From the IMG/VR virus record IMGVR_UViG_3300021400_000552, positions 1 to 64,000 of that record: 64,000 bases of DNA; one strand, 5' to 3'. The position numbers were made by a program, and so were the translations under genes. Source of the DNA: a virus (Duplodnaviria; Caudoviricetes). This document shows, one piece after another, positions 7,996-38,500 of this stretch. The notes beneath the pieces were generated by a model. That model was not told the origin of the DNA, searched no databases, and saw nothing but the letters and a program-made list of their open reading frames with translations. Position 1 is the stretch's first letter. Each line of letters opens with the position of its first letter.

Positions 7996-8072
7996 GGCAC
8001 GTTAGCTCAGCCAGGTAGAGCGGCGGACTGTTAATTCGCGTGTCCTAGGTTCGAATCCTAGACGTGCCGCCA
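7996..8072 (+). tRNA. tRNA-Asn(GTT)
   Basis: Acceptor GGCACGT/ACGTGCC, anticodon arm GCGGA-CTGTTAA-TTCGC, TTCGAAT T loop, G discriminator, CCA. Confidence 0.92.
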
Positions 8073-8120
8073 ATATTCCTATTTATTAGGAAAATTTTTA
8101 CATAAAAAGGAGAAAATGTT

Positions 8121-8297
8121 ATTTTTAAGATTACTAAAGAACAGGCGGAGTTCCTAAGAGAACACGCAAAAGAATCACGCATTACAACTGTCGGGCGAAA
8201 TAAAAAATCAAATCGTAAGGTAAGATATGTTGATGAATCTGATGAAACGAAATGGTTGCTCGATGAATATAGGCGCATTCATATGTGTCTGAATTGA
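8121..8297 (+). CDS. Small hypothetical protein (58 aa, not in ORF track; probable ATT start)
   Basis: Open frame IFKITKEQAEFLREH...KWLLDEYRRIHMCLN*; AAGGAG SD 8 nt before ATT; in-frame stop at 8103. Confidence 0.55.
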   Translation: MFKITKEQAEFLREHAKESRITTVGRNKKSNRKVRYVDESDETKWLLDEYRRIHMCLN

Positions 8298-8339
8298 TCT
8301 GGCGAGATCAAATTTTAAGAGAAAAGGAGATAATGAAAA

Positions 8340-14483: not shown

Positions 14484-14495
14484 GGGGTGATTTAG

Positions 14496-14672
14496 TTGTT
14501 TGTATATACGCGTAATGAGCAGGTGATCGCTCAGCTTGAAAAAGATGGCGCTCCCCTACTCCAAACATTAAGTGATGGAACTAAAGTATTTGTTCTCTCC
14601 CCTACTTCAAATTATTTTTCATATATTCAAAAACCAGAAACAGAAATATCCGACATGCTAACGTTCGGATAA
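14496..14672 (+). CDS. Small hypothetical protein (58 aa, not in ORF track)
   Basis: TTG start after AAGGGGTG; MFVYTRNEQVIAQLEKDGAPLLQ...MLTFG*. Confidence 0.55.
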   Translation: MFVYTRNEQVIAQLEKDGAPLLQTLSDGTKVFVLSPTSNYFSYIQKPETEISDMLTFG

Positions 14673-14720
14673 TTCTTTTTTATATATAAGTATTTTATTT
14701 TTTTTGAAGAAGGGAGGGAA

Positions 14721-16265
14721 ATGACTACCTTGAAAAAGAAAATGCAAATCGAGTTTAGTTCTGCCCTCTCGGACATCGCGGAGGTAAATAAGTCTTTTGA
14801 CTGTGCAAAACTTCGCGTTGCTTATACGGGCAAGAATAGAAATAACTCTTATATTAGTACAGAGGCATTTGAGCATGCTGTACCCACCATGTTTAATGTG
14901 CCGGTTGTAGCCAATTACAATCGTGAGGATGATGAGATTGGTTCGCATGATGGGACATGGATTAAAGATAAAAATGGTGAAGTACAGTATGTGAATATTA
15001 CACAACCAGTCGGCGTTGTTCCTGAATCTGCACAATGGTATTGGGAGGACGTTGATGATGGTGGTGAAATGCACAAGTATTTCTGCACTGAAGTTTTGTT
15101 ATGGAAGCGCCAGGAGGCTTATCAGAAAATCAAAGAAAATGGCGTTACAAAGCATTCAATGGAAATCAGTGTTACAGATGGTGAAATGCTTGATGACTAT
15201 TATAAAATTAATGAATTTCAATACACGGCATTTTGCCTTTTAGGAACGGCTACGCCGTGTTTTGAAAGCAGCTCATTATTTACTTTCTCCGCTGAGGAGC
15301 AAGAAGAATTTAAGCTGCAATATACGCAGATGCTGGAAGAATTAAAGGAGCTTGGCAGTTCCTATTCGGAGAAAGAGAAGGAGGCTAACTTGAAGCTAAA
15401 AGAACTTCTTGAACAGTATTCTGTATCAATGGAGGATGTCGGGTTTGAAGTTGAAGGCTTATCTGACGAGGAACTTGAGGCCAAGTTCGCAGAGGTTTTC
15501 GCGGATGGAGACGACGCATCTGATGGCAACGCCGATCAAGAATCAACAGATGACGGTGATGCAGATGATATCGACTATGACAACGAAGAAGATGGCGGCG
15601 AAGGCGAAGGTACAATTAAGCAACCAAAAGAATTCGTTTTAGACTCTCAAATGCGAGATAGCCTTCATGCTGCTGTTGAAGGACTAGGCGAGATTGAACG
15701 TGAATGGGGATCTTATCCTCGCTATTGTCTGGCTGATTATGACGCAGATGTACAGGAAGTCTACTTCATTGATCTTGAGGACTATAAACTATATGGATGT
15801 GGTTTTGAGTTTGATGGAGACGACATTGTTTTTGATACGGAAAATATTAAACGTAAAAAATATCAAATCGTTGACTACATTGAAGGTGGTAGCGAGCAAG
15901 AATTCGCTCTCGGTGATATTTTTGATATGTTTGATCAAGTATATGTTAAAGATCCAATCGATGCTAATGAATTTAAGCGTTTACAGGATTTTGAGGCAAA
16001 TGTATTAAAAGAAAAGCGCGAGGATGAAGAAAATAAGCTATTTGCTGAATTTGAAGATCAATTAAAAGAAAACGAAAGCTTTGTAGCTTTGAAGAAAAAT
16101 GCTGCAGATTATACAATCGATGCACTTCGAAAAGAGCTCTTTGCTTTAATCGGACAGATGCAGTTTACGGTTAAGGATACCAAACCGGCACCGGGCATTG
16201 TGTTCGAAGATAAACCTAAAAACTCTTCCATGAGAAAATTGTTTGCATGGAAGGATGCTGAATAA
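14721..16265 (+). CDS. Prohead protease/scaffold protein
   Basis: GKNRN.SYIS, IGSH, KHSMEI, P.FE motifs followed by an acidic coiled region; lies between portal and capsid. Confidence 0.7.
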   Translation: MTTLKKKMQIEFSSALSDIAEVNKSFDCAKLRVAYTGKNRNNSYISTEAFEHAVPTMFNVPVVANYNREDDEIGSHDGTWIKDKNGEVQYVNITQPVGVVPESAQWYWEDVDDGGEMHKYFCTEVLLWKRQEAYQKIKENGVTKHSMEISVTDGEMLDDYYKINEFQYTAFCLLGTATPCFESSSLFTFSAEEQEEFKLQYTQMLEELKELGSSYSEKEKEANLKLKELLEQYSVSMEDVGFEVEGLSDEELEAKFAEVFADGDDASDGNADQESTDDGDADDIDYDNEEDGGEGEGTIKQPKEFVLDSQMRDSLHAAVEGLGEIEREWGSYPRYCLADYDADVQEVYFIDLEDYKLYGCGFEFDGDDIVFDTENIKRKKYQIVDYIEGGSEQEFALGDIFDMFDQVYVKDPIDANEFKRLQDFEANVLKEKREDEENKLFAEFEDQLKENESFVALKKNAADYTIDALRKELFALIGQMQFTVKDTKPAPGIVFEDKPKNSSMRKLFAWKDAE

Positions 16266-22847: not shown

Positions 22848-23222
22848 GTGGCTAAGAAGAACGGAACTTGTTTATTATGCGGCACAAAATACGAAGTTTG
22901 TAAATTCTGTCAACGCACCAAGGTGTATTATCCGTGGAAAATTGACTTTGATACTCCGAAGCACTTCCAAATTTACGCCATTGTCACTGACTTAAGAAAT
23001 GATGTGCTTAAGCCGGACGAGGCTAAGGAAAGATTAGATCATATTGGGGTTACAGCTGAAGAAATAGCAAATTTCGTTCCGTCAGTGCAGGCCACTTTGA
23101 AACCATTATATGATATTGATGATAAGCCAGAAATAAAGAGCGGCTTAGGTGAACAGGTGGCGGCACGCAAAGAAGAGCCGCAAAGAAAAACGGCAAAACC
23201 CTTTAAGGGTCGTAAAAAATAA
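22848..23222 (+). CDS. Hypothetical CxxC-CxxC protein
   Basis: CLLCG..YEVCKFC; GTG start with GGTG SD. Confidence 0.6.
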   Translation: MAKKNGTCLLCGTKYEVCKFCQRTKVYYPWKIDFDTPKHFQIYAIVTDLRNDVLKPDEAKERLDHIGVTAEEIANFVPSVQATLKPLYDIDDKPEIKSGLGEQVAARKEEPQRKTAKPFKGRKK

Positions 23223-23306: not shown

Positions 23307-23744
23307 ATGGAAAAATTCTTGAAAATAATCATTGATCAGGAATGTGTAGACCGCTACAATGCGCTATATTTTGAAAAACATCCAAAAGCAAAAAATAAGC
23401 GTATTACTTCCCCACAACATCCAAGCATGAATACATATTATAAGGCTAATTATCGAGAAGCAAATCATATTAAACAGATGTGGAAGGATTTTGTTGTGTG
23501 GCGCATTAAAGAACTTGGTTTAAGTAATGCCAATATTGGAAAGTGTCGCATCACATATGTAACGTATTTTAAGACAAATCGGCGTCACGATCCCGATAAT
23601 ATTTCTCCCAAATTTATTTTTGATGGATTTGTCGAGTCTGGTCTTTTAACTGATGATGATTTAAAACATGTCACCTCTCTTACAATTGAGGGTGGAATAG
23701 ATAAAGAAAACCCACGTATGGAATTTCTAATTGAAATTTTATAA
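23307..23744 (+). CDS. rusA: RusA-family Holliday junction resolvase
   Basis: RRHDPDN..K...DG.V..G...DD catalytic signature. Confidence 0.8.
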   Translation: MEKFLKIIIDQECVDRYNALYFEKHPKAKNKRITSPQHPSMNTYYKANYREANHIKQMWKDFVVWRIKELGLSNANIGKCRITYVTYFKTNRRHDPDNISPKFIFDGFVESGLLTDDDLKHVTSLTIEGGIDKENPRMEFLIEIL

Positions 23745-23753
23745 AAGGAGAAT

Positions 23754-24401
23754 ATGAGTATGAGTAAGTATAATAGTGCTCTTGAATATGTTGACGCATT
23801 TATGGATCAAAAAAAGACAATTGAATATGGCGAAAATGATTTAGTAATTAATGTTAGAGACAATATCGATGTTGATGATGTTCTTAACGCCATTGCTACA
23901 ATTGTCGATAATGTTGTTGAACGTGAATTTGAATACGAATTGATTGATTTAATGATTCCGTATTATCTAATGAAATTATTCACAGATATTACACCGCCGA
24001 CGATAGAAAAAGATGGTGAGGTATTTCCAGATTTTCAAAAGTGTTATGAAATTGCAACTTGCTTAAATTTGGAATATGAATTAACCCAGGTCTCCCCTAT
24101 CGTCGCTGGCTATGTTTATTTTATGACACAGAATATTTGGAGAAAATTAGATTATCATAAATCGCAAGGTGCGTATATAAAGCGTGAATTAATGGAATCG
24201 TTATCTGCATTTTACGAAGTTATGGATGAGTTAGATCAGGCAGCCGAACAACAAAAGGACATTGATCTTGACGGTTTTGTGAAACAATTGTCTGAGATTT
24301 CCACAGCATTAAATGATCTCAAAGATGAACAAGAAACGAGAGATTTATCGACGCTTGATGGTAATGCGTCTATAAGTTTAGCTATTCCAAAGAGCAATTA
24401 A
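23754..24401 (+). CDS. Hypothetical acidic protein (possible tail assembly chaperone)
   Basis: AAGGAG SD; helical and acidic; position. Confidence 0.45.
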   Translation: MSMSKYNSALEYVDAFMDQKKTIEYGENDLVINVRDNIDVDDVLNAIATIVDNVVEREFEYELIDLMIPYYLMKLFTDITPPTIEKDGEVFPDFQKCYEIATCLNLEYELTQVSPIVAGYVYFMTQNIWRKLDYHKSQGAYIKRELMESLSAFYEVMDELDQAAEQQKDIDLDGFVKQLSEISTALNDLKDEQETRDLSTLDGNASISLAIPKSN

Positions 24402-24465
24402 CATAGAAACAGCTCGCATCATTCATATGCGCAGTGATTGTTTCGGAAAGAAGTAGGTGTTCATA

Positions 24466-24780
24466 ATGTCGCCAGGTACTACAATAATCGTGGCAATTTT
24501 AACCTCGAATGCGTTTTTTGGCGTTATCCAATTCTTGATAACACGCGCTTTTAACAGTCGAGATTTGATCTGCGCAGATATGTCTGTTGTGATATATAAC
24601 CAGCTTGCAGACAAGATTGAAAAATCTCTTGATCGAGGATATGCTACACCAGAGCAACGACGTGATGTCGAAAAACTCTATGAGAGATATGATGCACATG
24701 GTTGGAATGGTGATATGCGTTCGCGCATGGATAAATTTTATGACCTTCCAACAAAAAATTTAAATGATGTCTATCAGTAA
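24466..24780 (+). CDS. Small membrane-anchored (holin-like?) protein
   Basis: N-terminal hydrophobic TIIVAILTSNAFFGVIQFLI; Y..Y..HGWNG motif. Confidence 0.5.
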   Translation: MSPGTTIIVAILTSNAFFGVIQFLITRAFNSRDLICADMSVVIYNQLADKIEKSLDRGYATPEQRRDVEKLYERYDAHGWNGDMRSRMDKFYDLPTKNLNDVYQ

Positions 24781-24817
24781 GATATTATTCTTATTATATG
24801 CGAAAAGGAATAAATAA

Positions 24818-25828
24818 ATGCAAAAAATAACACCCATTACTACAGAGGAGTGGGAGCAGTGTAATAAATGGAATCGTGAAATAGTGGATGAATTTTTGGC
24901 GAATTCTTTTCATCTTTCGCCAAAAAGTAAAAAGGCTTATAGATCAAATTTAATGATCTGGTTTAATTGGGTTCGTAAGAACTTAAAGAATAAGCCGCAA
25001 TATGAAATTAAACCTCTTGATTATTTAAAATACCAAAGTTGGCTGTTATCAATGGGACATAGTTCTTCGGATGTTGACAGCAAAAGAGCTGCAATATCAT
25101 CTCTTTGTAATTACATCGAACTTTATTATTTAGATGAGTTTCCAAATTTCCGCACATGTATTGCCAAGGGAATGAGCAGACCAGTAAAAAAACTTGTGCA
25201 CGATAAGATCCCTCCAACTAAAGAAGAGATGGAAATGTTATTCCGTGAACTTGAAAAACGTCAAGATTGGCAAAAGTTGGCTTATCTTAGATATACATAT
25301 GATACTGGTTGTAGACGGGCCGAAAGTGTGCAGCTGCTTAAAGAGGTTGTGAATTATCAGCCTATCGAGAAAACTATTAAGGTGGCAGATCAGAATGGTA
25401 ATGAGCATGAAATTATTGTGAAATATTATCGAAGTAATTCAACGCGTTGTAAAGGACGTGGTGAAGCTGGAAAAGTACGCAAATTGATTTTTTCACAAGA
25501 TACCATGGATGCTATTAAAAAATGGTTAGAGGTTCGTGGAGACGACGACTGCCCGTATGTATTCGTGTCACGTCATAATGGAAAGGTGCAACAACTAAGT
25601 GAAAGCGCACTTAATAAATGGGCGTCTGGTCTCTTCACGAAATTGCTCGGACGTCGTTTTCATCCACATATATTGCGTGAAGCGCGCGCTACGATTGGCG
25701 TTGTTGAAGATGGTAAATCTGCTGAGGCAATGCAGAAGCTGCTTGGTCATGAATCTGTAGAAACAACAGTGAATCACTACATTATCAAAGATGATGATGA
25801 TGATGAAATTGATGAATTATTTATATAA
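24818..25828 (+). CDS. Tyrosine recombinase in tail region (SPbeta YomM-like position)
   Basis: N-terminal core-binding-like region, TGCRRAE, CKGRG, HPHILR, LGH, NHY. Confidence 0.9.
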   Translation: MQKITPITTEEWEQCNKWNREIVDEFLANSFHLSPKSKKAYRSNLMIWFNWVRKNLKNKPQYEIKPLDYLKYQSWLLSMGHSSSDVDSKRAAISSLCNYIELYYLDEFPNFRTCIAKGMSRPVKKLVHDKIPPTKEEMEMLFRELEKRQDWQKLAYLRYTYDTGCRRAESVQLLKEVVNYQPIEKTIKVADQNGNEHEIIVKYYRSNSTRCKGRGEAGKVRKLIFSQDTMDAIKKWLEVRGDDDCPYVFVSRHNGKVQQLSESALNKWASGLFTKLLGRRFHPHILREARATIGVVEDGKSAEAMQKLLGHESVETTVNHYIIKDDDDDEIDELFI

Positions 25829-25834
25829 TTAGTT

Positions 25835-26221
25835 ATGTCATATATTTTTTATAATCCAAACCCATCTCAAAAAATGGTTGGTGATTGTGTTATTCGAGGT
25901 GTATCACGGGTAACACATCAAAATTGGGATGACACATATATGGATATCTGTATGTGTGGATATGCAATGAAGGACATGCCGTCTTCGAATAATGTTTGGG
26001 AAAATTATCTTATAAAAAATGGATTTATTCGAACATTATTGCCGGACACATGTCCCAATTGTTATACAGTTAGAGATTTTTGTTTAGACTTTCCACATGG
26101 CACTTATCTGCTGGCGACTGGCGGCCATGTTATTGCTGTCGAAAACGGCGATTACTATGATGCATGGGATTCTGGCAATGAAGTGCCAATATATTATTGG
26201 AAAGAAAAGGAAGATATATAA
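25835..26221 (+). CDS. Cassette gene 1: papain-like Cys-His-Asp fold protein (putative peptidase)
   Basis: NPNP..GDCVIR, GGHVIAV, YYDAWDSG. Confidence 0.55.
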   Translation: MSYIFYNPNPSQKMVGDCVIRGVSRVTHQNWDDTYMDICMCGYAMKDMPSSNNVWENYLIKNGFIRTLLPDTCPNCYTVRDFCLDFPHGTYLLATGGHVIAVENGDYYDAWDSGNEVPIYYWKEKEDI

Positions 26222-26670
26222 TGCAATATTCAAATGGATTCTTAAATACATCTCCATACAATAATGGCTATATGCAGAACGCTGGTGTTGCACCATTAAC
26301 ACAGAACGGTCAAACACTTGTACAGCCAGCACAAATGCCACCAGTATCCCCTATCGCAAATTCATTTACATGGGCGTGGGTACAGGGAGAGGCTGGGGCT
26401 CAAGCTTATCCAGTGGCACCAAACACAACAGTTCTGCTACTTGATTCCGACGAGCCTCGACTGTTCATGAAATCTGCAGACGCAAGTGGAAAGCCACAGG
26501 CTATGGAAACGAAGTATTTAGTTGACGAAGAAAAATATAAGCAAATTCAACTAACTGCGGAAAACACTCCTAGTGTTGAGTATGTTACAAAGGAAGACTT
26601 TGAACGTTTTGTCGAAGACGCTAATAATAAATTTGTGATTCGAAAGGAAAAGAACAATAATGGCAAATGA
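26221..26670 (+). CDS. Cassette gene 2: Q/P/N-rich N-terminus plus globular domain
   Basis: TAATG coupling; WVQGEAGAQAYPVAPNTTVLLLDSD; YVTKEDF tail. Confidence 0.7.
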   Translation: MQYSNGFLNTSPYNNGYMQNAGVAPLTQNGQTLVQPAQMPPVSPIANSFTWAWVQGEAGAQAYPVAPNTTVLLLDSDEPRLFMKSADASGKPQAMETKYLVDEEKYKQIQLTAENTPSVEYVTKEDFERFVEDANNKFVIRKEKNNNGK

Positions 26671-26890
26671 TTTGTTTACTAAGTTTGGCCACACCCCGCC
26701 AGAACAAATGTCTGGACCGTTTGGAAATGTGGCCGATATTTTGAATAAATATAATGAATTTGCAAATAATTTACAGGGAGATCCTAAACAGCAGGTGCAA
26801 AACCTTCTGAATAGCGGTCGTATGTCACAGCCACAGTTTAATTGGTTGAGTCAGATGGCTCAAGCTTTTCAACAATTAATACATAGATGA
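26660..26890 (+). CDS. Cassette gene 3: small Q/N-rich helical protein
   Basis: DPKQQVQNLLNSGRMSQPQF; AAAGGA SD. Confidence 0.7.
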   Translation: MANDLFTKFGHTPPEQMSGPFGNVADILNKYNEFANNLQGDPKQQVQNLLNSGRMSQPQFNWLSQMAQAFQQLIHR

Positions 26891-27068
26891 TGGCTTACGC
26901 TCTTTGGGCGTGTTTAGTGAACAGGTGAATTGAGAACATGAGTGTGCAATTTGGTTAAAAGCGCGATTAGGCTGGCTGAAAATGTATACATAAATATTGC
27001 GCTTTAACATAACAAAATTTTTCTCATTTATCTAGTCACTATTATGTGACAGAAAGGAGTTAAAGCTT

Positions 27069-27812
27069 ATGGCTTTAGCAACAGAAAATAGCAATGGTAT
27101 GGTTATGCCTGTAGCACCAATGTATGGAAATGGTGGTAGCAATGGATTTGGTTGGAACGATGGTTCGTTCTGGATTATTATTCTGTTCCTATTTGCCTTC
27201 ATGGGCAATGGTTGGGGCGGATTTGGTAATGGTTTTGGCGGAGGAGGTGCCGTGCAGACCGTAAATAATGACGTCCAGCGTGGTTTCGATCAACAGGCTG
27301 TTATGGGTGGTATTAATAGTATTAATACTGCGGTGTCTAACGGTTTTGCGAATGCTGAAATTTCCAGATGCAATGCACAGGCAAACGTGCTGCAGACCTT
27401 AAATGATATGGCGATGAATTATCAGGGCTGTTGTTGTGAGCAGAAAGCTGCAATTGCTGACTTAAAATATACAATCGCAACAGAGGCATGCGCTGATAGA
27501 CAGTCTGTTAATGATGCATTACGCGATATCATAGAGGCGCAAAATGCTGGAATACAGTCCATTAAAGATCAGATGTGTCAGGACAAGATTGATGCGAAGA
27601 ACGAGCGAATTCAAGAATTGCAGGCACAGGTTAACATGATGAATCTTGCAGCCTCTCAGAATGCTCAGACTTCACAGATTTTGGCGGACAATGCTGCGCA
27701 GACACAGGCGCTTGAACAGTATCTGAACCCGGCTCCGATTCCGGCATATGTAGTTCAGAACCCTGCATGTTGCAATACGCCATACTATAACGGTTGCGGA
27801 TGTAATGCGTAA
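27069..27812 (+). CDS. Cassette gene 4: Gly-rich, single hydrophobic segment, coiled-coil, Cys-cluster protein
   Basis: FWIIILFLFAFM flanked by G/N/F repeats; GCCCE; C-terminal ACC..GCGC; AAAGGAG SD. Confidence 0.75.
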   Translation: MALATENSNGMVMPVAPMYGNGGSNGFGWNDGSFWIIILFLFAFMGNGWGGFGNGFGGGGAVQTVNNDVQRGFDQQAVMGGINSINTAVSNGFANAEISRCNAQANVLQTLNDMAMNYQGCCCEQKAAIADLKYTIATEACADRQSVNDALRDIIEAQNAGIQSIKDQMCQDKIDAKNERIQELQAQVNMMNLAASQNAQTSQILADNAAQTQALEQYLNPAPIPAYVVQNPACCNTPYYNGCGCNA

Positions 27813-27826
27813 AGGGGGTGGCATTT

Positions 27827-28300
27827 ATGGCTGAATATGCAGCAAATGCCGTCCAGATTGTAAATCCGGGCGAAACTGTAGTGTTTACGGATTCACCTGA
27901 ACCTTGTGCGCGTGGTTTTATTCGTCATCGTGATGGTACTGGAAATTTTCTGTTAAGTGGATGGACGCCGCGTCGTTTTAATTGTGGTTGTGGATGCACT
28001 CGCAATAAGTCGGCAAACTATCTTATAGATTTCGGTGCGAATATTTCTATTCCAGAAGGTGGTACCGTGGAGGCTATTTCACTAGCTATCACAATTGATG
28101 GTGCTACTATTCCGGCTAGCAATATGATCGTAACTCCGGCTGCAGTTAACGAATATTTTAATGTGAGTCGTGCGATTAATGCAGATATTTGGAATGGATG
28201 TTGCGAATCTGTTGCAATAAGAAATACGAGCGCCCAACCAATCCAGGTTCAAAATGCTAACGTTATTTTTTCACGGCCAGATTTATCGGTCACTTATTAA
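27827..28300 (+). CDS. Cassette gene 5: beta-sandwich (BclA-CTD/C1q-like?) Cys-containing protein
   Basis: Alternating beta-strand pattern; CGCGC and CC motifs. Confidence 0.65.
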   Translation: MAEYAANAVQIVNPGETVVFTDSPEPCARGFIRHRDGTGNFLLSGWTPRRFNCGCGCTRNKSANYLIDFGANISIPEGGTVEAISLAITIDGATIPASNMIVTPAAVNEYFNVSRAINADIWNGCCESVAIRNTSAQPIQVQNANVIFSRPDLSVTY

Positions 28301-28318
28301 GAAAGGAGGAATGTATAG

Positions 28319-28816
28319 ATGCATAAAAAGATTGCAAAGGTGCAGGAAATTCTTGAAAGAGAAATATGTGGTATGTTTGATCAGATTATTACTGCAGGCT
28401 CCATTTCTCCGGCAGAAGTGGAAACGATGGATGAGGCCGTTGAATTAATGCTGAAAATGCAAAAACTTGAAGGCCGTCAGGAATACGGCGAAGAATCTTT
28501 CGATTCTAGTTATGATGGTTATAATGGCGGTTCATATAGGCGTGGTAGAGACATTAATACTGGTCGATATATAAGTAGGGACTCTTATCGTGGCGGTATG
28601 CCCTATTATGACCAAGGCTATATGAGAGATTCATATAGAGGTGGTAACGGTGGTAATTACTATGATAGGGGCTCTTTTGAGCGCGGTTATAGCGGTCATT
28701 CTATTAAGGATCGCATGGTAAGTCAACTTGAGGCCATGTATGACGAAGCTCAAACAGAGCATGAACGTCAAATGGTTGACGAGTGGATTAAACGTATTGA
28801 GACTGAACAGCAATAA
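28319..28816 (+). CDS. Cassette gene 6: helical protein with Tyr/Gly/Arg low-complexity middle
   Basis: RDSYRGG repeated twice, GYSGHS; AAAGGAGG SD. Confidence 0.7.
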   Translation: MHKKIAKVQEILEREICGMFDQIITAGSISPAEVETMDEAVELMLKMQKLEGRQEYGEESFDSSYDGYNGGSYRRGRDINTGRYISRDSYRGGMPYYDQGYMRDSYRGGNGGNYYDRGSFERGYSGHSIKDRMVSQLEAMYDEAQTEHERQMVDEWIKRIETEQQ

Positions 28817-28836
28817 TCGGTTTCGTTAAAATTACA

Positions 28837-28887
28837 GGGGTGCATTGTATGCTTAGCGGGTGTATCATGCACCCCCCTTCTTTTTTA
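28837..28887 (+). terminator. Rho-independent terminator closing the cassette
   Basis: GGGGTGCAT...ATGCACCCC followed by a T tract. Confidence 0.65.
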
Positions 28888-29006
28888 TGGTTACGCTATT
28901 TTTTTAATTTTAAAATTTGATGTACGAAGATTAGATCGCATTTGCGATTTGATATATAAAATTTGTTATTTTATTAATTATTAAATAGAAAGGATTGGTG
29001 GTGCTT

Positions 29007-29456
29007 ATGGCGTTACCAAGCAGTGTTATGGCGGCGGTAAATCGCGCAACTAGTTCAGCTGCATCTGATGCAATGTCTATAGATATTGGTGCTGCCGCAA
29101 ATCAAATATATCAATTACTACTTGATAATATCAACGGTTCAGATATCCCTGGTGGAATTAAGGGCGCGATTATAGGCGCTATGTCTGGCCCAGTAATTGT
29201 AAGCCCAGAACACGCCATTATATTTGTTGGTGACGTAATGAGGCCATCTGTATATTCTGGATCTGCTGATATGGTCATGGTGTACAACAAACGTAAAGCA
29301 ATCAGTCCACATTTGTATTACAACACAAAATATAATTGTTGGACAAAAATGAGGGGCGGCTTTCTTAAAGCATATAATAATATGTATTTGGAGAAGACTG
29401 TCTCCACAGGCAACGCTATGTTGGCCCCGTACGGCGGCTCTGTAACGTTGGGTTAA
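29007..29456 (+). CDS. Hypothetical protein preceding tape measure
   Basis: ATG after GGTGGTG; co-oriented. Confidence 0.55.
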   Translation: MALPSSVMAAVNRATSSAASDAMSIDIGAAANQIYQLLLDNINGSDIPGGIKGAIIGAMSGPVIVSPEHAIIFVGDVMRPSVYSGSADMVMVYNKRKAISPHLYYNTKYNCWTKMRGGFLKAYNNMYLEKTVSTGNAMLAPYGGSVTLG

Positions 29457-29473
29457 TAAAGTGAGGTGAGAAC

Positions 29474-31242
29474 TTGGCTGAAAATATTCATGTGCATGTA
29501 GTTAACGATGCACACTTGACAATACGGGAACTCGAAAAAATATTTGCTTACGATGGTAAAACTATCAATATCCCGATCGTAAGTAATGCCGCTGAAATTA
29601 AGGCCGATTTACGACATATCTTTAATCATAATAGAAAATCCGTTAAAATTAAATTTGATGCAGAAGGATTGAAAGATATTGAGAAAAAGATGGATAAAAT
29701 TAAAAATTTTGATCCATCTAAGACTATATCAAAAGCGGCTAAGGCTGGCGGCAGTAAAGGCGGCAATAAAGCTAAAGATGTGTTTGCTGGCCAAATAAAG
29801 ACATATCAACAAGGTGCGCTTAAGTTGCAAAAAGCAATGACGCAAGTTAATCGGGAAATCGCGGCTGCTGAGAAGTTTTTATATAAGAACACTGGCGCAC
29901 TTGGTACTAAGCAGGTTCAACAGTTAACAAAGCGTAATACTGAAATGCGCAAATTATACGCCAATATGGAAAAGGCGTATAAAGACACATTTAGTAAGGG
30001 TGGAACTGACAAGCTCGGTGATAAAAATCGTGGCGTACTACAAGGGTTGCTTGGAGATGCTGATAAAGCAATTACTGGATCGCGAAATCAGCGTTCTGCG
30101 CAAAGTTTAGGGTTAAGTCAATATGCCGCCACTATGAATAAGGATGTTAACTCTATTGTTAATACTCTTACAAATGCACAGGGGCAAATTCGCGGCAAGA
30201 TCTCTGGTTTGCAAAAGATTTTAGATTCAAGCGGTAAACACAACCTCAGCAACGGAGATATTTCACGTATGCGCACTGAGGTTGAAACCCTAAAAACGAG
30301 TCTGAAAGATATTCAAAATCTACAAACTCAAATACCAACTAAAGGCGCACAAGGCAAAGGCGTTCTGGGTGATGCTAATGTAGCAAAACAAGTCGAAGAA
30401 GTGACTAAGGGGTATGAGCGTGCAATAGCATCTGCAAAAGGTCTAACATCTGAAATGAATGGCAAGCTTGGAATAGCCAATGCCATGGATAATCAGATGG
30501 TCTATTTTGATAAAATGGGCGCCAAGATGTCAGACTATTTTACAAAATTTGGACATAATTTGCAAAAAAATGCTCAGCTTTATGATAGATTCTTAACGTT
30601 ACAGAATAAAGCAAATAATGGTCAGTTTGCTTCAATTGGAGACGCAAATACGCAGTGGGCGCAGTTTCGTACGGAGGCGAGATCCGCTGGAGTTGAAATT
30701 GATAGTTTTGGAGCCAAACTAGAAAGAACCTTTGGTAGTAGAATCAGATCCGCAACAGCTGGTATGGGTGTATTTGCATTACAAGGTGTAGTTCGTGACA
30801 TTGTGACGAATGCTCGTGATGTTGATACAGCGATGACCGAGCTGAAAAAGGTCACAAATGAAACTGACGCGACATACACGCAGTTCTTGGACAATGCTGG
30901 AACACGTGCTCAGAATTTGGGCGCAACACTCCAGGAAACAGTAAGTGCAACGGCAGATTTTGGGCGTCTTGGATATGACATTGAAGACGCGACTAAACTT
31001 GCGGATAACGCACTTATCTATCAGAATGTCGGTGACGACATTGACAACATCGATGAGGCGTCAAAGGCGCTTATTTCAACGATGCAAGGGTTTAATATAC
31101 AAGCTGATGATAGTGCTCAGATTGTAGATAAATTTAATGAAGTTGCGAATAACTACGCTTCTTCAGCTGGTGATATCGGTCAGATTACTCAGCGAAGTGC
31201 TGCGGCTATGTCGGCGGCAGGCAACTCCTTAGATCAGACCAT
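29474..31242 (+). CDS. Tape measure protein, exon 1
   Basis: TP901-type TMP core DTAMTELKKV..FGRLGY..VDKFNEVAN..AAGNSLDQT; ends on U of the 5' splice site. Confidence 0.85.
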
Positions 31243-31493
31243 AAAATGTTGTGGCTATGGTTGGTGACAATCATAGAAAACCCGTCTAAACATGGAAACC
31301 CCTATTGGTATAGGGCAACCAAGTGCTAATATAAAAGCTAAACGACTATCTCGAAAGAGAGTACACTGCAAACTACTGGTAGTGGAAACGGCGGGGCTCT
31401 AATACAGTTAGAGCATGATATAGTCTTTTCTGCATGGAAACATGTAGCTGTTAATAACGGGCGTGATGTGGTGAATCACGTTGAAAATGAAAG
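31243..31493 (+). ncRNA. Group I intron 1 (IA2-like, no ORF, 251 nt)
   Basis: P1 CCAU/GUGG with U-G at junction, P2 with GUGA loop, R AAACGACUA, S GAUAUAGUC, P7.1/P7.2 hairpins, terminal G; splicing restores the frame. Confidence 0.85.
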
Positions 31494-31533
31494 TGCATTG
31501 GGAGTTGCAGCTAACGAAGTTCAACAGGATGCT
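31494..31533 (+). CDS. Tape measure protein, 40-nt exon 2
   Basis: Encodes (I)ALGVAANEVQQDA, bridging ...DQT and DTVGTALKT in frame. Confidence 0.85.
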
Positions 31534-32516
31534 TAATTTTAGGCGTCCAAGACAGAGATGTCTTGGATTATTACACCTTTGAATTGCGGGAAACTCCATA
31601 CGTAACATGTATGGACAATCCGCAGCCAAGCCTCTATATAGAGGAAGGTTCAACGACCATCCCAATTGGGAGTAGGATGCAAGCGATTGGTATCCGAAGC
31701 GGAGGTGGCGCTAACATGTAGTGATGAGCGTTAAGATATGGTCTGTACTTGTAGGTAACTATAAGATTATTTGCATCATTCGGAAATGGAGATAATTTAT
31801 TTATACTGTTTATGAACATGTTTTCCCAAACGGGAAAAGATATGTGGGTATTACGAAACAGCAACCTGAGCGTAGATGGCAAAATGGATATGGTTATCCA
31901 CTCAATAAACAGCCATTAATAGCAAAAGCTATTAAAAAATACGGTTGGGAAAATATTACTCATAATATACTACATCAAAATCTTACTTATGACGATGCTC
32001 AAAATTTAGAAAAGTATTATATTGAGAAAAATCATTTGACAAATCCAAACTATGGTTATAATTGTACGTCTGGCGGTGATGCGCCAGCATATAAAGTTGG
32101 ACGACCAGTGATTTATAATAATCATATATATAAATCACTTAAAGACTTTTGTAATACATTCTCACTAAGCACTAGAACAGTTGGGTCGTGGCTTACAGAG
32201 GGTGTACCAATGGACCCGAATTATTATGATCGAGGATTGCGATATGTTGATCAGGATCGCGAAATTATTCGAGGAAAACGCTCGTTTAAGCGTAAAGTAA
32301 TATGCGATGGTGTGATATATGATTCATTACGTGATTTTTGTAGGCAACATAATATTAACAGTGGAATATCACATTGGTTAAGTGGAAATAAGGGTATGCC
32401 AATATATTGGTATAATAAAGGATTGAGGTATCTAGATCAGGACTTCAATGAAATTAAACAAGCTAAGAAAGATGCAAATAATAAGTGGATGTAGCGAGTT
32501 CACTTTAACGTTCTAG
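31534..32516 (+). ncRNA. Group I intron 2 (IA2-like, 983 nt, carries a homing endonuclease)
   Basis: P1 GGAUGCU/GGCGUCC, P AAUUGCGGGAA, Q AAUCCGCAGC, R UUCAACGACCA, S AAGAUAUGGUC, terminal G at 32516. Confidence 0.9.
31799..32494 (+). CDS. Intron-encoded GIY-YIG homing endonuclease
   Basis: YTVYEH.FPNGKRYVGIT..RRW..E..YI..GYN; two C-terminal NUMOD-like repeats; probable ATT start after GGAG (track start 31844 cuts the motif). Confidence 0.85.
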   Translation: MYTVYEHVFPNGKRYVGITKQQPERRWQNGYGYPLNKQPLIAKAIKKYGWENITHNILHQNLTYDDAQNLEKYYIEKNHLTNPNYGYNCTSGGDAPAYKVGRPVIYNNHIYKSLKDFCNTFSLSTRTVGSWLTEGVPMDPNYYDRGLRYVDQDREIIRGKRSFKRKVICDGVIYDSLRDFCRQHNINSGISHWLSGNKGMPIYWYNKGLRYLDQDFNEIKQAKKDANNKWM

Positions 32517-35500
32517 GATACAGTAGGTACGGCTTTAAAAACCATGAGTATGCGGCTTAGAGGTTCTAAGACGGATGTAGAGTCGGCGGGTCTTGATGCC
32601 GAAGGTATGGCAACGTCTGTATCTAAACTTCGTGATGAGATAATGAGTTTGTCTGGCGTTGATATAATGCTGGATGATAATACTTTTAAGTCCTCTTACG
32701 ATATTCTTATGGGTATTGGAGAGGTTTGGGATGGCCTAACAGATGTTAATAGGGCAAATATTACTGAATTATTATTTGGAAAAAGGCAAGCTAACATTGG
32801 TACGGCTATTCTGCAAAATTATGAGCGTGCTCAAGAAATACTTGAAACATCACAAAATTCCGAAGGTAGTGCACTTCGCGAAAATGAAGTATACCTAAAT
32901 TCTTTACAAGGTCATATTGATAAATTGCAAGCAAAATGGGAAACATTTTCTGTTGCGCTTGCTGATTCATCTGGCTTAAAGGCATTAATTAACCTCGGTG
33001 GTAGAGTTATTGATACCTTTACCGGAATGACAAATGTTTTTGGCAGCGCGACAATGGTGTTAACCCCCCTCATTGCGGCAATGTCAAAAACTTCAAATTC
33101 TGGATTATTTAAAACTTATAATAAGTTAGTCAATGCAGAAACCGGCGCGGTTGAGGAACGTGTTGGAACAGCTTGGACGGCAAATCGAGAAGAAAAAATA
33201 ACTCGTACAGCGCAAGCACGAACAGCACATGCAGAAGACATGCGCCATATTAACAACGTTGCGTCCTATATGGATTCATACTCCAAGGGAGACAAGTCGC
33301 AAGAAAGTTGGTTAAAAACCCAAGAAAAAATTAATGCCGAAATGGAAGGCATGGGTAAAGAGGCCAGAGTTGCCGCCAATTCTATGATGCAGTATGGCGA
33401 TGACATGGACAAAGTGAACAATATTGGCAAAACATTCGACAAAGATGGTCAGAAACGAGTTGCCAATCTTGAAAAACAAAATAAAGGGTTTACGGGATTT
33501 GCAAAATCAACAACCGCCATGTTTGGTAACATCGGTGCATCTCTTGCTATAGGGGCTGGCATAACAGGTGCCATGGAAATTATTAGTGCTTTAGATCAAA
33601 GTATGAAAATTTCAGATGGTGCTAGAAAAGATGCCATGGAGCAAACGATTGACACATATAATAAATCTACAGAAAGCGCAGCTGAAAACAAAAAGACGAT
33701 TCAATCATTAGCGTCTGAATATAGAACACTTGCACAAGGTGTTGATTCTCAGGGACGCAATGTAAGCTTAACTGCGGATGAATTTGCGCGATACAATGAG
33801 ATAGTCGATCAATTAGTATCCATCTCCCCTTCCCTAATTCGCGGGTATAATAAAGAGGGTCACGCGATTATTGATCGCAATAATGCGATTAAGGATGCTA
33901 TAGATTTACAAGATGAATATGCAAAGGCGGCAACTAGCCGATATACATCTAATGAATCTATGCGTGACATTATAAATGGTGCACGTATAAACGTTGACGA
34001 TGCTTTAAAGGATTCGCGCTCATCTAGTGTTGAACTTGGTAAAGCTATTGGCTTGGATGCGCGTGAGCGTGGAACAATTACGTCTGAACGCGACTTGCGT
34101 AACGACGAAATAACAATTAAGCATGCTAAAGAGATTGATGATGCGCTCGGCCATGAGGTAGACCTACAGCACGCCTCTTCAGCGGAACTTGATGAGATAT
34201 TAGCAAAGCGCGGTGAAATATTAAAAAATACAGAGAAGCAAGCAAAAGCGGATGGTTTGTCCGCAGAGCAAACTCAAAATCGTGTAGATAAAGCCACCGA
34301 GGCTTTAAACACTTTAAGTGCAAATCAAATGGAGGTTGATTCTGCAACTCAACCTATATTGGATGCGCTTCAGGTTTATGCGTCTCAAATTAATGATGAT
34401 ACTGGTAAGTCTATCGTTGATGGATTACCAGAAGCCATGCAAGATGGTTATAATGCCGGACTAAAGGCAATTGCACAAAAAGCTGCAACAGACGATACTT
34501 TTGGTGAAGGACAAGCTAAAACCGCCGCAATGAATCTTGTGGATGAAATGAGCGCAGTATATAATTCTCCAGAATATCGTGAGATTATGTCAAAGGTTGA
34601 AGCGGCGCAAGATGAATTTATGAATAGCGATCGTAATAGGGCCGCTATGGAAAAATATAAAACACAGGTAGCTGGTTTGCAGGATCAGTTACAGGCCCTA
34701 GCCTCTCAATACGAGGGAACGAACGCTGCAATGTTTGAAGGTCTTAGCCAAATGGCTATCGACGTTGGAAATTTTGGACAAGATAATATTCTTTCGCTTG
34801 CGAACGCCTTTAATCCTCTTAAAGATAAAATTGATGAGGCGCGTGATGCTAAATCCAGATTTGACGATGCTATGTCTGGTGGCGATTACAACACCGCTAT
34901 TAACGCGCAAAAAGAAATATATGACGCGATGACAGAGGGCACCAATGACGAAGGCAATGGCACAATGGCCTTTTGGACTGGTGCTGAGGAAATTCTTGGC
35001 AAGGGAACCCTTCGAGACCTTGGATATGATATCGACTCCGTAAAAACAAAATTGCAAGAATGGGCGCCAGCAATGAAAGATACGGAAGCTGGAACGGACG
35101 CTTTATTTGATCAATTTGCAAAATATCGTGATACATTAAACGAAATTGATGGTGTTAATATTGCCGAGGATGGTTCATGGGATATTCCGGCTGAAAAATA
35201 TGCTGAGGTAGCACGCCAACTTGGTATTAGCGAAGATCTGCTGGTGTCTATGGTTGACAATGCTCGTCATTGGGCAGATGTTAAATTGTGGGATAGTCCA
35301 GAAAAAGCCGTTTCAGCAATTAAAGATATGGAGTCTACATATACAGATGCGGAAGGTAAAGCCTATGCATTTTATGACACTGTAGAATCTGAAGCACACC
35401 AAGCTGGACTATCTGGACAAGAGCTTACTGATTATATGTCTGAAATTGGTAAGCAAGTAGAATTAATAGACTTACAAAAGCTTGACTTTGATGCCGGGAC

Positions 35501-38500
35501 AGAAAAGGGTAAGAAAAATATTAAAGAAGTTGCCGATCAACTTATTGGTATGAATTCGGCCCTTGATAAGAACGGCAAGTTAGACCTTACTGGAACAACT
35601 GCAATGTTCAAGCAGATGGGCAAATCTGCTGATGAAACAACTCACGCACTTGAACAATTTGACGCTGCTGGTCTCTTAGATACGAGCGGCTATGATATGA
35701 GCGAATTTGGCGGTGATTTGAGTCAATTTGTTGCACAAGCCTTTGGCGAACTTGATACGAATAATCCGTTTGCGAATATGGAATCGTCTGTTGATAGTAT
35801 GGCGACCTCCATTAATAATCTTGTAGCAACGTTAGGTGGTGTTCCTGAAGATTGGTTGCACATAGATGGTCAATTAGCCAAAATTGATGAAGCCACATCT
35901 AAGGGTCGAAAAATGACCGATGAAGAGTATGAAGGTGCGCGTAAGACTTGGCAAGAAGAGCGACAGCATCAGGGACAGATTCTTCAGAATTCTAATGATC
36001 CCAATCAACGCAGACAGGCGTCTGCTAATATTGAAAGACTTAATAAAAGTGGACAAGCGCTTGAGAAACAGGCATATCAAAATGGTTTAACTACTGAAGC
36101 AGAATTTGAAAAACGTATGCATGGCGCTGGTGCAGATGGTCGTGCCGTACAATATGAAGAAGATGCTACTGCGATTCGTGACTTATCAAGCGCACTGAAA
36201 GAGGCCAGTCAAGATGGAGCAGAACTGGGTACTTCTGCTGAACAAGCGGGCAATAAATTACATGATATTGGCACCGATACTTCTGTTGCAACAGCATTTC
36301 AGAATGTCGAACGAGCTGCTCAGCAAGCAGATATGTCCGTTGCTGATTATATTCAATCTCTATCAAGTGGTAAAGATGAAGCAAATCAGCTAAATGATGC
36401 CTATATGGACTATTTGTCAGCTCGCCAAGATGAATATAGTTCTATGTTGCCAGAAGGGACTGGGCAAGTTTCGATCGAGGTTACGGCCGATGTGTCACAA
36501 TTTGAATCCTCGCTAGATGAAATTGAGGGGTTAAGTGGCGAGCAACACGAGGCTGTTATAAAAGGGGTTGTGGAATTTGAGCAATCTGGTGGTAGTAATT
36601 TAGAAGAATTAACATCTGCACTACAACAATTGCCTCCAGAAGTGCGAACAAATGTTATTGCCCAATTAAAGGAGTCTGGAAATCAAAGCCTTGTTGACTA
36701 TGCTGAAACATTAGATGAATTACCACCAGATGTTGTTACAAATGCGACTGTAGAAACATTGGTGAATTATCTGACAGGTAGTCAGGAGCCGCCAGAGGAT
36801 GGTAGTGCATCTGTCGGTTATGATAATGTAAGTGGTCAAGAACCACCGGAAGATGAATCAGCGTCTATCGCCTATGATACGATTAGCGATCAGGTCCCTC
36901 CAGAAGAAAAGACGGCGCCAGTAAAATATACGTGGGGCGGACAGGACGAGGCACAGCAAAGTACCACCACAGTTCAATATGATAATAGCGGCGCACCAAC
37001 ACTAAACGGAACGGCAAATTATACAACAACTTTTGATACAACAGAAGCGCCACCGCTTCCTGGTTTAGTTACTTATACTGGTGATTATAGCTCCCTAGTG
37101 GCTCCCACGTTACCCGGTACAGCCGTATATTCGACATCCGGGTTGCCGACAATAGCTCCTACAATCCACGGTACGGCAATTTATACAAAAAAGTTTGAAT
37201 ATAAAGGATCCGACAATCGTAGACGTGCATTGTCATCTGGAACCAGTGATAGAAGGCGTTTTCATTCTGCGGCTAGTGGTAAACTTGGTCCAACGGGACA
37301 TGGCGGCCTTACACTTACAGGCGAACTTGGTCCAGAATTAGTTTGGTTGCCAGATGATAACGCTTCGTTTTTAACTGGTTTGAGTGGCCCACAGATACAA
37401 GATCTTCCGGCTAACGCGGTAGTCTGGCCATATGAAGAAACCAAACGAATTTTTGGTGGAACGTTGCCACCTGGAGTGCTTACTAATCGTCACAGTATGG
37501 GGCGTTACGCAGCCTCTCATCTGGGTTCTTCCGCAAAAGGCTCTAATTACAAATTCGGTTCTGTAAAATCTGGAAAGAAAAAGAAGGGTTGGAGCGATTA
37601 TACGGATAAATGGGATTATAAATACGACCTCGAAAGTATTAGCGAGCAGGCATACTATAATGGTCTTCTTCGTATTTATAATAAACGTAAAAGCAAACTA
37701 AGCGGTAAGGAGAAACGTACTGCAAGGAAAGCAATCCATGATGCTTATACTGAACTATTAGAGGCCCAATCTAGTAGTTGGGAAGATGCTGTTGATATCG
37801 GCACTATGTCAGAGGCGACATACTATGGTAAATTAACAGCACAAACTAAACGGTATAGTAAAGGTAAATATGGCAAGCAAACAAAGGCGTATAGAGACCA
37901 TCTAAAGGAGCTTCATGATGCATATAATGATATGGTTGAGGCTCAGGCGGATAGTCTTGATCATAGTTTAGCCATGGGCGGCTTAGATGAAGCTGGTTAT
38001 TATCGTAGGCTTGTTGGTGTAGCAAATAAATATGCGCGTCCTCCTAAGAATGCCGGAAAGTTCACAAAAGAGTATAGAGAATATCAAGAAAAATTAAAAG
38101 AAGCAGCAGACGCAGTATATGATCGTGAGAAACGCGAGATTGATTTTATGCTCGGATTAGGTGTGGGCAAAAATGGTGGAAGATATACTGCGGTAAATGC
38201 TTATAGAGATTTGCAAGCGTATATTCGTAAGGCTATCAATGGTGTTGTAACAAGTAATACAAATACGCGCAAGTTAACGAGTGCCAACTATGTTAGAAAC
38301 TTTCTTTATACTGGAACAAGTAATAGGCGACAACCCATTCCTTCAATGGCTAGAGGTGGTCGGCTTGGACCAAATGGTCGTGGCGGACTTACGTTAACAG
38401 GTGAGTTGGGGCCAGAATTAGTTTGGTTACCAGACGAAAGTGTATCATTCGTTGTTGGTGTAGGCGGCCCTGAGATGGTCAATCTCCCATCTAATGCTGT

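Follow-up and report, generated by a model that had tools for sequence, protein, structure and literature searches.

We describe here a cassette of six co-oriented genes, g1 to g6, at positions 25835-28816 (+ strand) of a 64,000-nucleotide window (the whole stretch of DNA that was analysed), which is part of the 116-kb uncultured virus record IMGVR_UViG_3300021400_000552 (Duplodnaviria; Caudoviricetes). The cassette lies between a tyrosine recombinase gene and the tape-measure region and is a swappable accessory that is dispensable for building this virion. The same gene set recurs far beyond chance in phages with unrelated backbones, with g2, g4 and g5 as its invariable core and with g1, g3 and g6 as optional members that are gained and lost together. 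By its predicted fold, g5 is a free-standing jelly roll of the C1q/TNF type, and g4 has the sequence plan of a rod with a likely membrane anchor near its N-terminus. We tentatively suggest that a g4 rod capped by g5 alters the membrane of the infected cell. A first-pass annotation, made by a model from the sequence, had singled out six open reading frames (ORFs) in this region; all six are present, and the compositions it ascribed to them are visible in the translations and alignments. The features of the locus are as follows (aa, amino acids; nt, nucleotides):

25816-28970, + strand: swappable cargo segment containing the whole cassette; the DNA match with L113, the closest relative (see below), ends at 25815 and resumes at 28971
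25835-26221, + strand: g1, 128 aa; candidate cysteine peptidase, minimal and papain-like (clan CA type); optional; phrog_3754, E 2e-26
26221-26670, + strand: g2, 149 aa; core; phrog_21718, E 1e-18
26660-26890, + strand: g3, 76 aa; Gln-rich; optional; phrog_22984, E 1e-13
26891-27068, + strand: gap between g3 and g4, 178 nt; no Rfam match, promoter call or terminator call
27069-27812, + strand: g4, 247 aa; putative rod protein; core; phrog_16490, E 2e-32
27827-28300, + strand: g5, 157 aa; predicted free-standing C1q/TNF jelly-roll knob; core; phrog_20016, E 2e-38
28319-28816, + strand: g6, 165 aa; Tyr/Ser/Arg/Gly-rich centre between helices; optional; no PHROG or Pfam family
28858-28885, + strand: intrinsic-terminator-like hairpin and T-run at the 3' end of the cassette

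Recurrence, conserved core and cargo site

Loci were fetched via g5 and compared with iterated hidden Markov models (HMMs), 106 in total, comprising 26 from IMG/VR and 80 from species-representative genomes. The first-pass annotation had suggested that similar gene sets recur in gut Clostridia and their phages, and the neighbourhood search agrees with this and reveals a conserved gene order, shared by IMG/VR contigs, phage isolates and ~80 Bacillota genomes. The g4 gene lay 5' of g5 in every locus with enough upstream DNA (59/59), and the same 59 loci contained g2 in 53 cases and g1 and g3 in 42 cases each, while g6 lay 3' of g5 in 57 of 97 loci. When both flanks were available (n=56), the complete order g1-g2-g3-g4-g5-g6 was found in 36 loci and the minimal form g2-g4-g5 in nine, and the full six-gene order persisted down to 36% g5 identity; in two loci g1 was located downstream of g6. 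Homologues are numerous, with 3602 clusters at 90% identity for g5, 3332 at 50% identity for g1 and at least 7988 homologues of g4 at E <= 0.001 among the matches listed, and no source names any of these three families beyond 'hypothetical protein'. Adjacent g4 and g5 genes were found in Butyrivibrio virus Ceridwen, in Dulem viruses and in numerous phage contigs from human faeces; for Ceridwen and Dulem virus 33 they belong to a five- or six-gene set of the same size that lies 3' of lysin and holin genes. Other copies have genes inserted in the gap between g3 and g4, one of them, in Dulem virus 33, encoding an endonuclease. The backbones of the carriers are unrelated (~40, 57, 60, 91 and 116 kb), and a search for a tail sheath in five carrier phages found none. 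Plasmid records yielded just two weak or secondary matches.

Matches to PHROG families were obtained for five of the six proteins, and every one of these families is labelled function unknown. None of the six proteins gave a significant match in Pfam or NCBIfam, the Rfam search of 24400-29600 and a blastn search of the cassette against phage records gave no match, and literature searches on the cassette found no paper.

The accessory nature of the cassette is established by the closest IMG/VR relative of this phage (L113, IMGVR_UViG_3300021400_001623), which has 93% amino-acid identity in the tail tube and 87% in the recombinase and, because it carries other cargo at the same breakpoints, demonstrates that the cassette is not essential to the virion. 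The segment of L113 at this site (13839-15886) contains a 205-aa ClpP-like ORF and a 472-aa ORF with HxHxDH and a putative metallo-beta-lactamase fold (labels assigned by eye). In L114, a further relative, both the recombinase and the cassette are missing, whereas L009 and L019, large phages that are more distant, carry the cassette at the same place. The insertion site is a hot spot for cargo swaps just 3' of the tyrosine recombinase; a repeat search revealed no flanking repeats marking an insertion mechanism.

Predicted structures of the cassette proteins

The AlphaFold2 (AF2) model of g5, computed from 22 sequences (predicted local distance difference test score, pLDDT, 81), is a compact all-beta jelly roll of 10 strands that begins directly at the protein start. 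A comparison of this region's proteins with C1q and with the C-terminal domain (CTD) of BclA had been proposed in the first-pass annotation, and structure comparison supports such a likeness for g5. In VIA the F-BclA CTD (9h38) ranked top with Z 17.0 and a root-mean-square deviation of 1.7 over 123 residues, BclA (1wck) scored Z 16.0, ExsFA/BxpB (7r1m) Z 14.0, and C1q, collagen VIII NC1 and EDA Z 13-14, with TNF ligands and phage fibre knobs further down; Foldseek likewise placed F-BclA first (E 2e-8). Because sequence identity to these solved relatives is just 12-15% and no sequence model matched, the assignment is made at the level of the fold only: no Pfam or NCBIfam family was found for g5 at E <= 1, BclA_C and C1q included, a profile search against PDB sequences found nothing, and in the Atlas feature search BclA_C and C1q clusters were sub-threshold leads only (0.86-0.88). 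We therefore regard g5 as a predicted C1q/TNF (BclA-CTD/ExsFA-like) jelly roll by fold and not as a family member by sequence. Among predicted viral structures, the best matches were free-standing proteins of 130-142 aa from gut phage contigs, followed by collagen-like C1q proteins. The protein is strongly conserved, with the best 120 of the 3602 clusters being 73-100% identical, apart from a variable Cys-bearing loop at residues 47-62. The translation shows CGCGC as well as CC; the CC pair, at 125-126, does not vary in alignment A1 and was seen in 96 of 100 homologues. No convincing form of g5 fused to a rod or to collagen was detected; the one candidate, a 292-aa protein on a 1.2-kb contig, resembles a read-through or assembly artefact and was rejected.

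The plan of g4 was read from an alignment of 18 diverse copies (A4), with statistics on up to 216 homologues, and comprises the following parts:

27069-27161, + strand: g4 residues 1-31; conserved acidic leader without Lys or Arg, ending in G-N-G-G or N-G (120 homologue N-termini)
27168-27203, + strand: g4 residues 34-45, FWIIILFLFAFM; 12-residue ultra-hydrophobic core
27429-27728, + strand: g4 residues 121-220; helix-compatible stretch of ~100 residues with one Gly and zero Pro, opening with CCC (121-123) and containing Cys141 and Cys170
27729-27749, + strand: g4 residues 221-227, PAPIPAY; conserved Pro-rich motif, candidate g5 docking peptide
27768-27803, + strand: g4 residues 234-245; CC...CGC tail

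The greasy segment, long helix and Cys clusters described in the first-pass annotation were all seen in this alignment and at these residue positions. The hydrophobic core is embedded in an uncharged Gly/Asn/Trp-rich stretch from G32 to N66 and, across 140 homologues, the segment has a mean Kyte-Doolittle value of 2.19 over 15 residues and no positively charged flank, with the leader on its N-side containing on average 0.11 Lys/Arg and 2.1 Asp/Glu. The segment is likely to be a membrane anchor. The CCC at the helix start was found in 84 of 100 homologues. Within the Pro-rich motif P223 is invariant and P225 at least 90% conserved (alignment A4), and the pattern PxP(I/V)PAY occurs in 175 of 216 homologues at a median of 27 residues before the C-terminus. 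In the tail C245 is invariant, and 4-5 Cys were counted in the 33 homologues in which the tail could be delimited. Many leaders read LSxxDVxxVxGN, which has the spacing of a double-glycine leader but Asn at position -1; the leader in this window is the variant MPVAPMYGNGG. Comparison of the g4 profile with PDB sequences gave weak, non-significant matches only, coiled-coil proteins and influenza HA2 (E 0.16) among them. The NCBIfam scan of 18 g4 homologues returned nothing, including any match to bacteriocin-leader or exosporium-leader HMMs, and g4 contains no GXY repeats. In the translations we saw no lipobox, and none of the six begins with a signal-peptide-like hydrophobic stretch (judged by eye, without a predictor). 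The architecture of g4 also occurs in the lytic Bacteroides uniformis phage C3_41T2LP and the Clostridium perfringens phage CPD1, in both cases in a neighbourhood of recombination genes. Profile comparison found no similarity to g5 in the gene 3' of the g4-like gene in either phage, and we therefore claim no g5 partner there.

For g1, an AF2 model computed from 61 diverse homologues (pLDDT 96.5) has an alpha+beta papain fold in which Cys18 opens the helix 18-27, and conservation reaches at least 90% across the 61 sequences at D17, C18, H98, D109 and D112. The model and the conserved Cys, His and Asp, in that order, are consistent with the papain-like triad that the first-pass annotation had read from the sequence. 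The top 50 VIA matches were all papain-like enzymes, the best being Josephin-2 (Z 6.9), and included staphopain, AvrPphB and UfSP, as well as the C39 domains of PCAT1, ComA and LahT150 at Z 6.1-6.4. Foldseek gave no match below E 0.001, and we found no Pfam family and no PDB sequence match (the profile search returned noise only). Since the Z scores are middling, we retain g1 as a candidate papain-like peptidase on the evidence of its predicted fold and do not place it in C39. Ten longer g1 homologues contained no informative extra domain, a gyrase-B read-through being the only family at E <= 0.01, and the cassette contains no ABC transporter gene. We searched for g1 in three complete 57-58-kb phages (CheckV 99-100%) and two bacterial genomes having g4 and g5, and it was absent anywhere in them; the identical search recovered g1 in 5/5 positive controls.

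Two further features of the g1 family were observed. A CPxC motif at residues 73-76 (26051-26062), followed by YTV.DF, is nearly invariant in close relatives and lost in L017; it gave a weak, non-significant match to the glutaredoxin active site (E 0.78). Homologues with 35-37% identity to g1 include Tsamsa gp15 (L111:4971-5366), which lies near a kinase gene and an ocr-like gene, and GBK2 gp35 (L112:4983-5372), which lies just 5' of RecE/RecT.

The remaining three proteins are of low complexity. In g2 a Gln/Pro/Asn/Tyr-rich N-terminus precedes a conserved domain of ~60 aa (WVQGE..YPV.P..KS.D..G.P) and a C-terminal helix (alignment A5); its Atlas model is of low confidence (pLDDT 0.57), and comparison of its profile with PDB sequences returned noise only. 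A consensus of g3 was derived from 68 sequences. In g6 the N- and C-terminal helices flank a disordered Tyr/Ser/Arg/Gly-rich centre with a conserved SYRRGR..TGRY.SRD (alignment A6).

Timing, hosts and possible role of the complex

The first-pass annotation had described the cassette as tightly coupled and bounded by terminators. The downstream terminator was confirmed, but none was found upstream, and coupling is interrupted by the gap between g3 and g4. The start of g1 lies 6 nt past the recombinase stop and has no Shine-Dalgarno sequence, whereas g2 to g6 each have one (strong at g4, g5 and g6); the likely start of g2 (ATG 26221) overlaps the g1 stop as TAATG, the reading frames of g2 and g3 overlap at the end of g2, and g5 starts at ATG 27827, as in its homologues. 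Since neither a terminator nor a consensus promoter was called ahead of g1, the cassette is probably read from the late operon within which it lies here, co-oriented with the tail genes. A second indication of timing is provided by L009 (IMGVR_UViG_3300021387_000308, 102 kb; 8001-8471), in which genes end with TGA or TAA and TAG is used as a sense codon: in-frame TAGs occur three times in g1, eight times in g4 and three times in g5, at positions where relatives have Gln. In recoded phages, in-frame recoded stop codons are concentrated in late genes. In other phages the cassette was found 3' of an endolysin gene, 5' of an anti-repressor gene or beside an exonuclease gene, and its usual position is beside lysis genes or at the late/early boundary, a frequent site of accessory genes.

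Isolate-backed carriers include Butyrivibrio fibrisolvens (the host of Ceridwen) and a complete Lachnospiraceae chromosome, as well as prophages in Lachnospira intestinalis and Selenomonas sp.; many labels on metagenome-assembled genomes among the carriers, such as Bacteroidales, Methanobrevibacter and Saccharibacteria, are probably binning errors. Butyrivibrio, Lachnospira, Selenomonas and Bacteroides hosts do not form spores. This range of hosts contradicts one suggestion of the first-pass annotation, that the cassette encodes a modification of the host's spore coat or exosporium. The nearest solved folds of g5 are indeed BclA, F-BclA and ExsFA of the Bacillus exosporium, and the Cys-, Tyr- and Arg/Gly-rich compositions recall coat proteins. 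Nevertheless, we consider this explanation highly improbable, because the carriers include the non-sporulating hosts of Ceridwen, the Lachnospira and Selenomonas prophages and, for the g4 family, a Bacteroides phage; furthermore, the proteins contain no collagen repeats and match no BclA_C, CotZ or exosporium-leader HMM.

We tentatively prefer an explanation in which a g4 rod, made late, anchored in the membrane and capped by a trimer of g5, alters the membrane of the infected cell. Assembly would take place in the cytoplasm of that cell late in infection, since no signal-peptide-like N-terminal stretch is visible. There g4 would form a helical rod by oligomerisation, most probably trimeric, and its greasy N-terminal segment would insert into the cytoplasmic membrane, with an N-out, rod-in orientation being favoured because the leader is acidic and contains no Lys or Arg. 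The Pro-rich C-terminal tails of g4 would dock on the g5 trimer in the manner of exosporium leader peptides on ExsF: in a crystal complex the N-terminal Pro-rich leader of F-Anchor docks on the ExsF trimer, and residues 1-19 of BclA are cleaved off (PMC12357932). By analogy, we infer that the Pro-rich motif of g4 may resemble the ExsF-binding leader. Adjacent Cys clusters could lock the joint between rod and knob via metal thiolates or disulfides; a report of isopeptide attachment of BclA to BxpB (mBio 2011, PMC3104494) has been retracted and was not used as a precedent for a covalent link. Where present, g1 might trim a cassette protein, for which the g4 leader just ahead of the greasy segment is the best candidate, and g2, g3 and g6 may act as low-complexity scaffolds. 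The occurrence of the g4 plan from Bacillota to Bacteroides phages would be easier to reconcile with a universal target, for example the cytoplasmic membrane, than with a receptor specific to the host. Our guess is that the complex would change the host membrane late so as to control lysis or exclude further phages, with no role in building the virion.

Several results weigh against this explanation. The hydrophobic core of g4 (11-13 residues) is shorter than is usual for a membrane span and does not follow the positive-inside rule, and it could instead sit buried in an oligomer or in the particle. The number of Cys in the g4 tail showed no positive correlation and no co-variation with the number in the g5 loop. 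Most fold relatives of g5 form the ends of fibres carried by spores or virions, which favours a fibre. The fold-match scores of g1 are only middling (Z 6-7). The proposed processing of g4 by g1 is a weak step: the complete phages that lack g1 retain g2, g4 and g5 and keep the g4 leader, so a dedicated protease is not obligatory and trimming by g1 would be optional at best; and homologues of g1 occur without the rest of the cassette in the early regions of other phages, namely Bacillus phage Tsamsa, Geobacillus phage GBK2 and Lak megaphages. Those of Tsamsa and GBK2 hint at a host-directed role for this family of small putative peptidases.

A fibre on the virion itself would use the same parts differently, with a trimeric g4 coiled coil as shaft and g5 as distal knob forming an optional decoration of capsid or tail, or an adhesin; the greasy N-terminus would plug into a virion socket like the anchor of reovirus sigma-1, and g2 may be an adaptor. 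Fibre tips among the fold kin of g5 include PRD1 P5 and the Sf6 needle knob; cyanophage fibres, an entry labelled 'fibritin neck whiskers' and collagen-like C1q proteins encoded by phages and giant viruses also belong here. A fibre would also fit the lack of visible signal-peptide-like N-termini, the late operon beside tail genes in this window and the late-type TAG recoding of L009, and accessory fibres are commonly dispensable, like the cassette. However, backbones as unrelated as those of the carriers (~40-116 kb) would demand a universal attachment site, the cassette is often found 3' of lysis genes or near recombination genes and thus outside the tail module, g5 is too conserved for a determinant of host range, and a hydrophobic stretch this strong is unusual for a virion fibre. 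We therefore view a fibre, including its socket and adaptor, as somewhat unlikely. It is unlikely, too, that the cassette is not one system and consists of independent morons that travel together, with g1 as an early host-targeting protease and only g4 and g5 (perhaps with g2) cooperating. The stand-alone g1 homologues of Tsamsa, GBK2 and the Lak megaphages, the minimal g2-g4-g5 forms without g1, g3 and g6, and the two loci with g1 3' of g6 all suggest such independence, but 36/56 loci hold the six genes in a single order down to 36% g5 identity, the joint gain and loss of g1, g3 and g6 is the behaviour of one functional sub-module, and the frames of g1 and g2 and of g2 and g3 overlap here.

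The remaining explanations also invoke membranes. As an agent released at lysis, likened to a class I fusogen, a spanin or a bacteriocin, the rod would insert into or fuse the membranes of neighbouring cells or debris after burst; removal of the leader would bare the Gly-rich, fusion-peptide-like segment, and the knob would target a conserved surface molecule. The Gly/Trp hydrophobic segment with its uncharged flanks, followed by a long helix, would suit such an agent, as would the loosely double-glycine leader of many g4 homologues (LSxxDVxxVxGN), the C39 leader peptidases among the structural neighbours of g1, the frequent proximity of the cassette to holin and endolysin genes and the Cys pairs that could join rod and knob subunits. 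Nevertheless, we judge a released agent, together with this mode of exposure and targeting, to be distinctly unlikely, as the bacteriocin-leader HMM gave no support, the influenza HA2 matches were non-significant, there is neither a lipobox nor an outer-membrane partner, and g1 is optional. A bolder version, in which the cassette encodes a protease-activated machine of tailed phages for membrane insertion or fusion with the logic of class I fusogens, seems very unlikely. The Cys-linked C1q-like head would then serve as holder or trigger, leader removal would bare a Gly/Trp-rich peptide on the trimeric coiled coil, and the membrane acted upon would be the one common to single- and double-membrane hosts.

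Surroundings of the cassette and comparison with known systems

All large genes of the window lie on the + strand. Upstream of the cassette lie genes for a terminase, a portal, virion proteins and a tube-like protein, followed by the RusA resolvase and the tyrosine recombinase (24818-25828); downstream, a 153-aa ORF precedes a split tape-measure gene. The RusA-like resolvase and tyrosine recombinase (23307-25828) lie inside the block of tail genes, with the tube-like gene on one side and the tape measure on the other; this location is odd and is also seen in L009, L019 and L113. Directly 3' of the tube-like gene, 22848-23222 encodes a 124-aa protein with a zinc-ribbon-like N-terminus (CxxC...CxxC), which is kept in L009, L019, L113 and L114. 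The tape-measure gene (29474-41408) is in two parts of 597 and 2954 aa around a GIY-YIG-type ORF (31844-32494), and 3' of it a single ORF of 4179 aa (42353-54892) presumably encodes a giant tail or fibre protein.

Carriers of the cassette number thousands of gut and rumen phages, including the cultivable Butyrivibrio virus Ceridwen. Its six proteins are spread over phages of Bacillota, and in the case of the rod also of Bacteroides, and have neither a family name nor a paper. Together its parts are reminiscent of a rod-and-knob device that would self-assemble and touch a membrane. Because the cassette is portable across unrelated backbones and dispensable for particles, it probably confers a conditional advantage, such as lysis control, exclusion, adhesion or killing, of a kind for which phage biology so far has no description. 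Resolving its role would bring annotation to a sizeable share of viral dark matter and could reveal a new phage action on cell envelopes.

With the BclA and F-BclA CTDs and ExsFA (9h38, 1wck, 7r1m, 8d02, 9h3d) g5 shares its predicted jelly-roll fold (Z 14-17), and ExsFA, at ~160 aa, is free-standing like g5. In the BclA-ExsFA nap a Pro-rich terminal peptide of the rod docks on the trimer after N-terminal cleavage (PMC12357932), a logic that may be similar for g4 and g5, and in both systems assembly would proceed inside the cell without secretion. The differences are that identity is 12-15% with no BclA_C or C1q Pfam match for g5, that the exosporium rod is collagen whereas that of g4 would be alpha-helix with a greasy segment and Cys clusters, that the docking peptide of the exosporium is N-terminal and the candidate peptide of g4 C-terminal, and that the cassette, unlike exosporium genes, is phage-borne and also present in non-sporulating hosts. 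The predicted papain fold of g1, in which the conserved Cys opens a helix and precedes the His and the Asp, is shared with clan CA enzymes, both the C39 peptidases (PCAT1, ComA, LahT150), whose substrates have a double-glycine leader with a spacing loosely like that of g4, and the Josephin/UfSP Gly-Gly hydrolases. It is set apart from them by Z scores of 6-7 with no Pfam or PDB sequence match, its lack of an ABC transporter, its size of 128 aa, its CPxC motif and its being optional.

Viral fibres with TNF-like knobs (PRD1 P5, the Sf6 knob, reovirus sigma-1 and collagen-like C1q proteins) have a helical or collagen shaft that ends in a jelly-roll knob and are likewise accessory and mobile. In the cassette, however, two different polypeptides would provide rod and knob, g5 is strongly conserved and not hypervariable, g4 has a membrane-type hydrophobic segment, and the cassette is not bound to the tail module, lying between tube and tape-measure genes here and 3' of lysis genes or among recombination genes elsewhere. 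Like g4, spanins and class I fusion proteins have a hydrophobic Gly-rich segment followed by a coiled coil and possible Cys links between subunits, and in relatives the cassette is often found beside holin and endolysin genes. Unlike spanins, the cassette lacks a lipoprotein partner and a transmembrane helix with positive flanks, and no sequence match was significant; it lies away from lysis genes in this window and also occurs in phages whose hosts have a single membrane and need no spanins. Overall, no described system combines the parts of this cassette, and its nearest analogue, the BclA-ExsFA nap, shares with it one fold and a design logic only.

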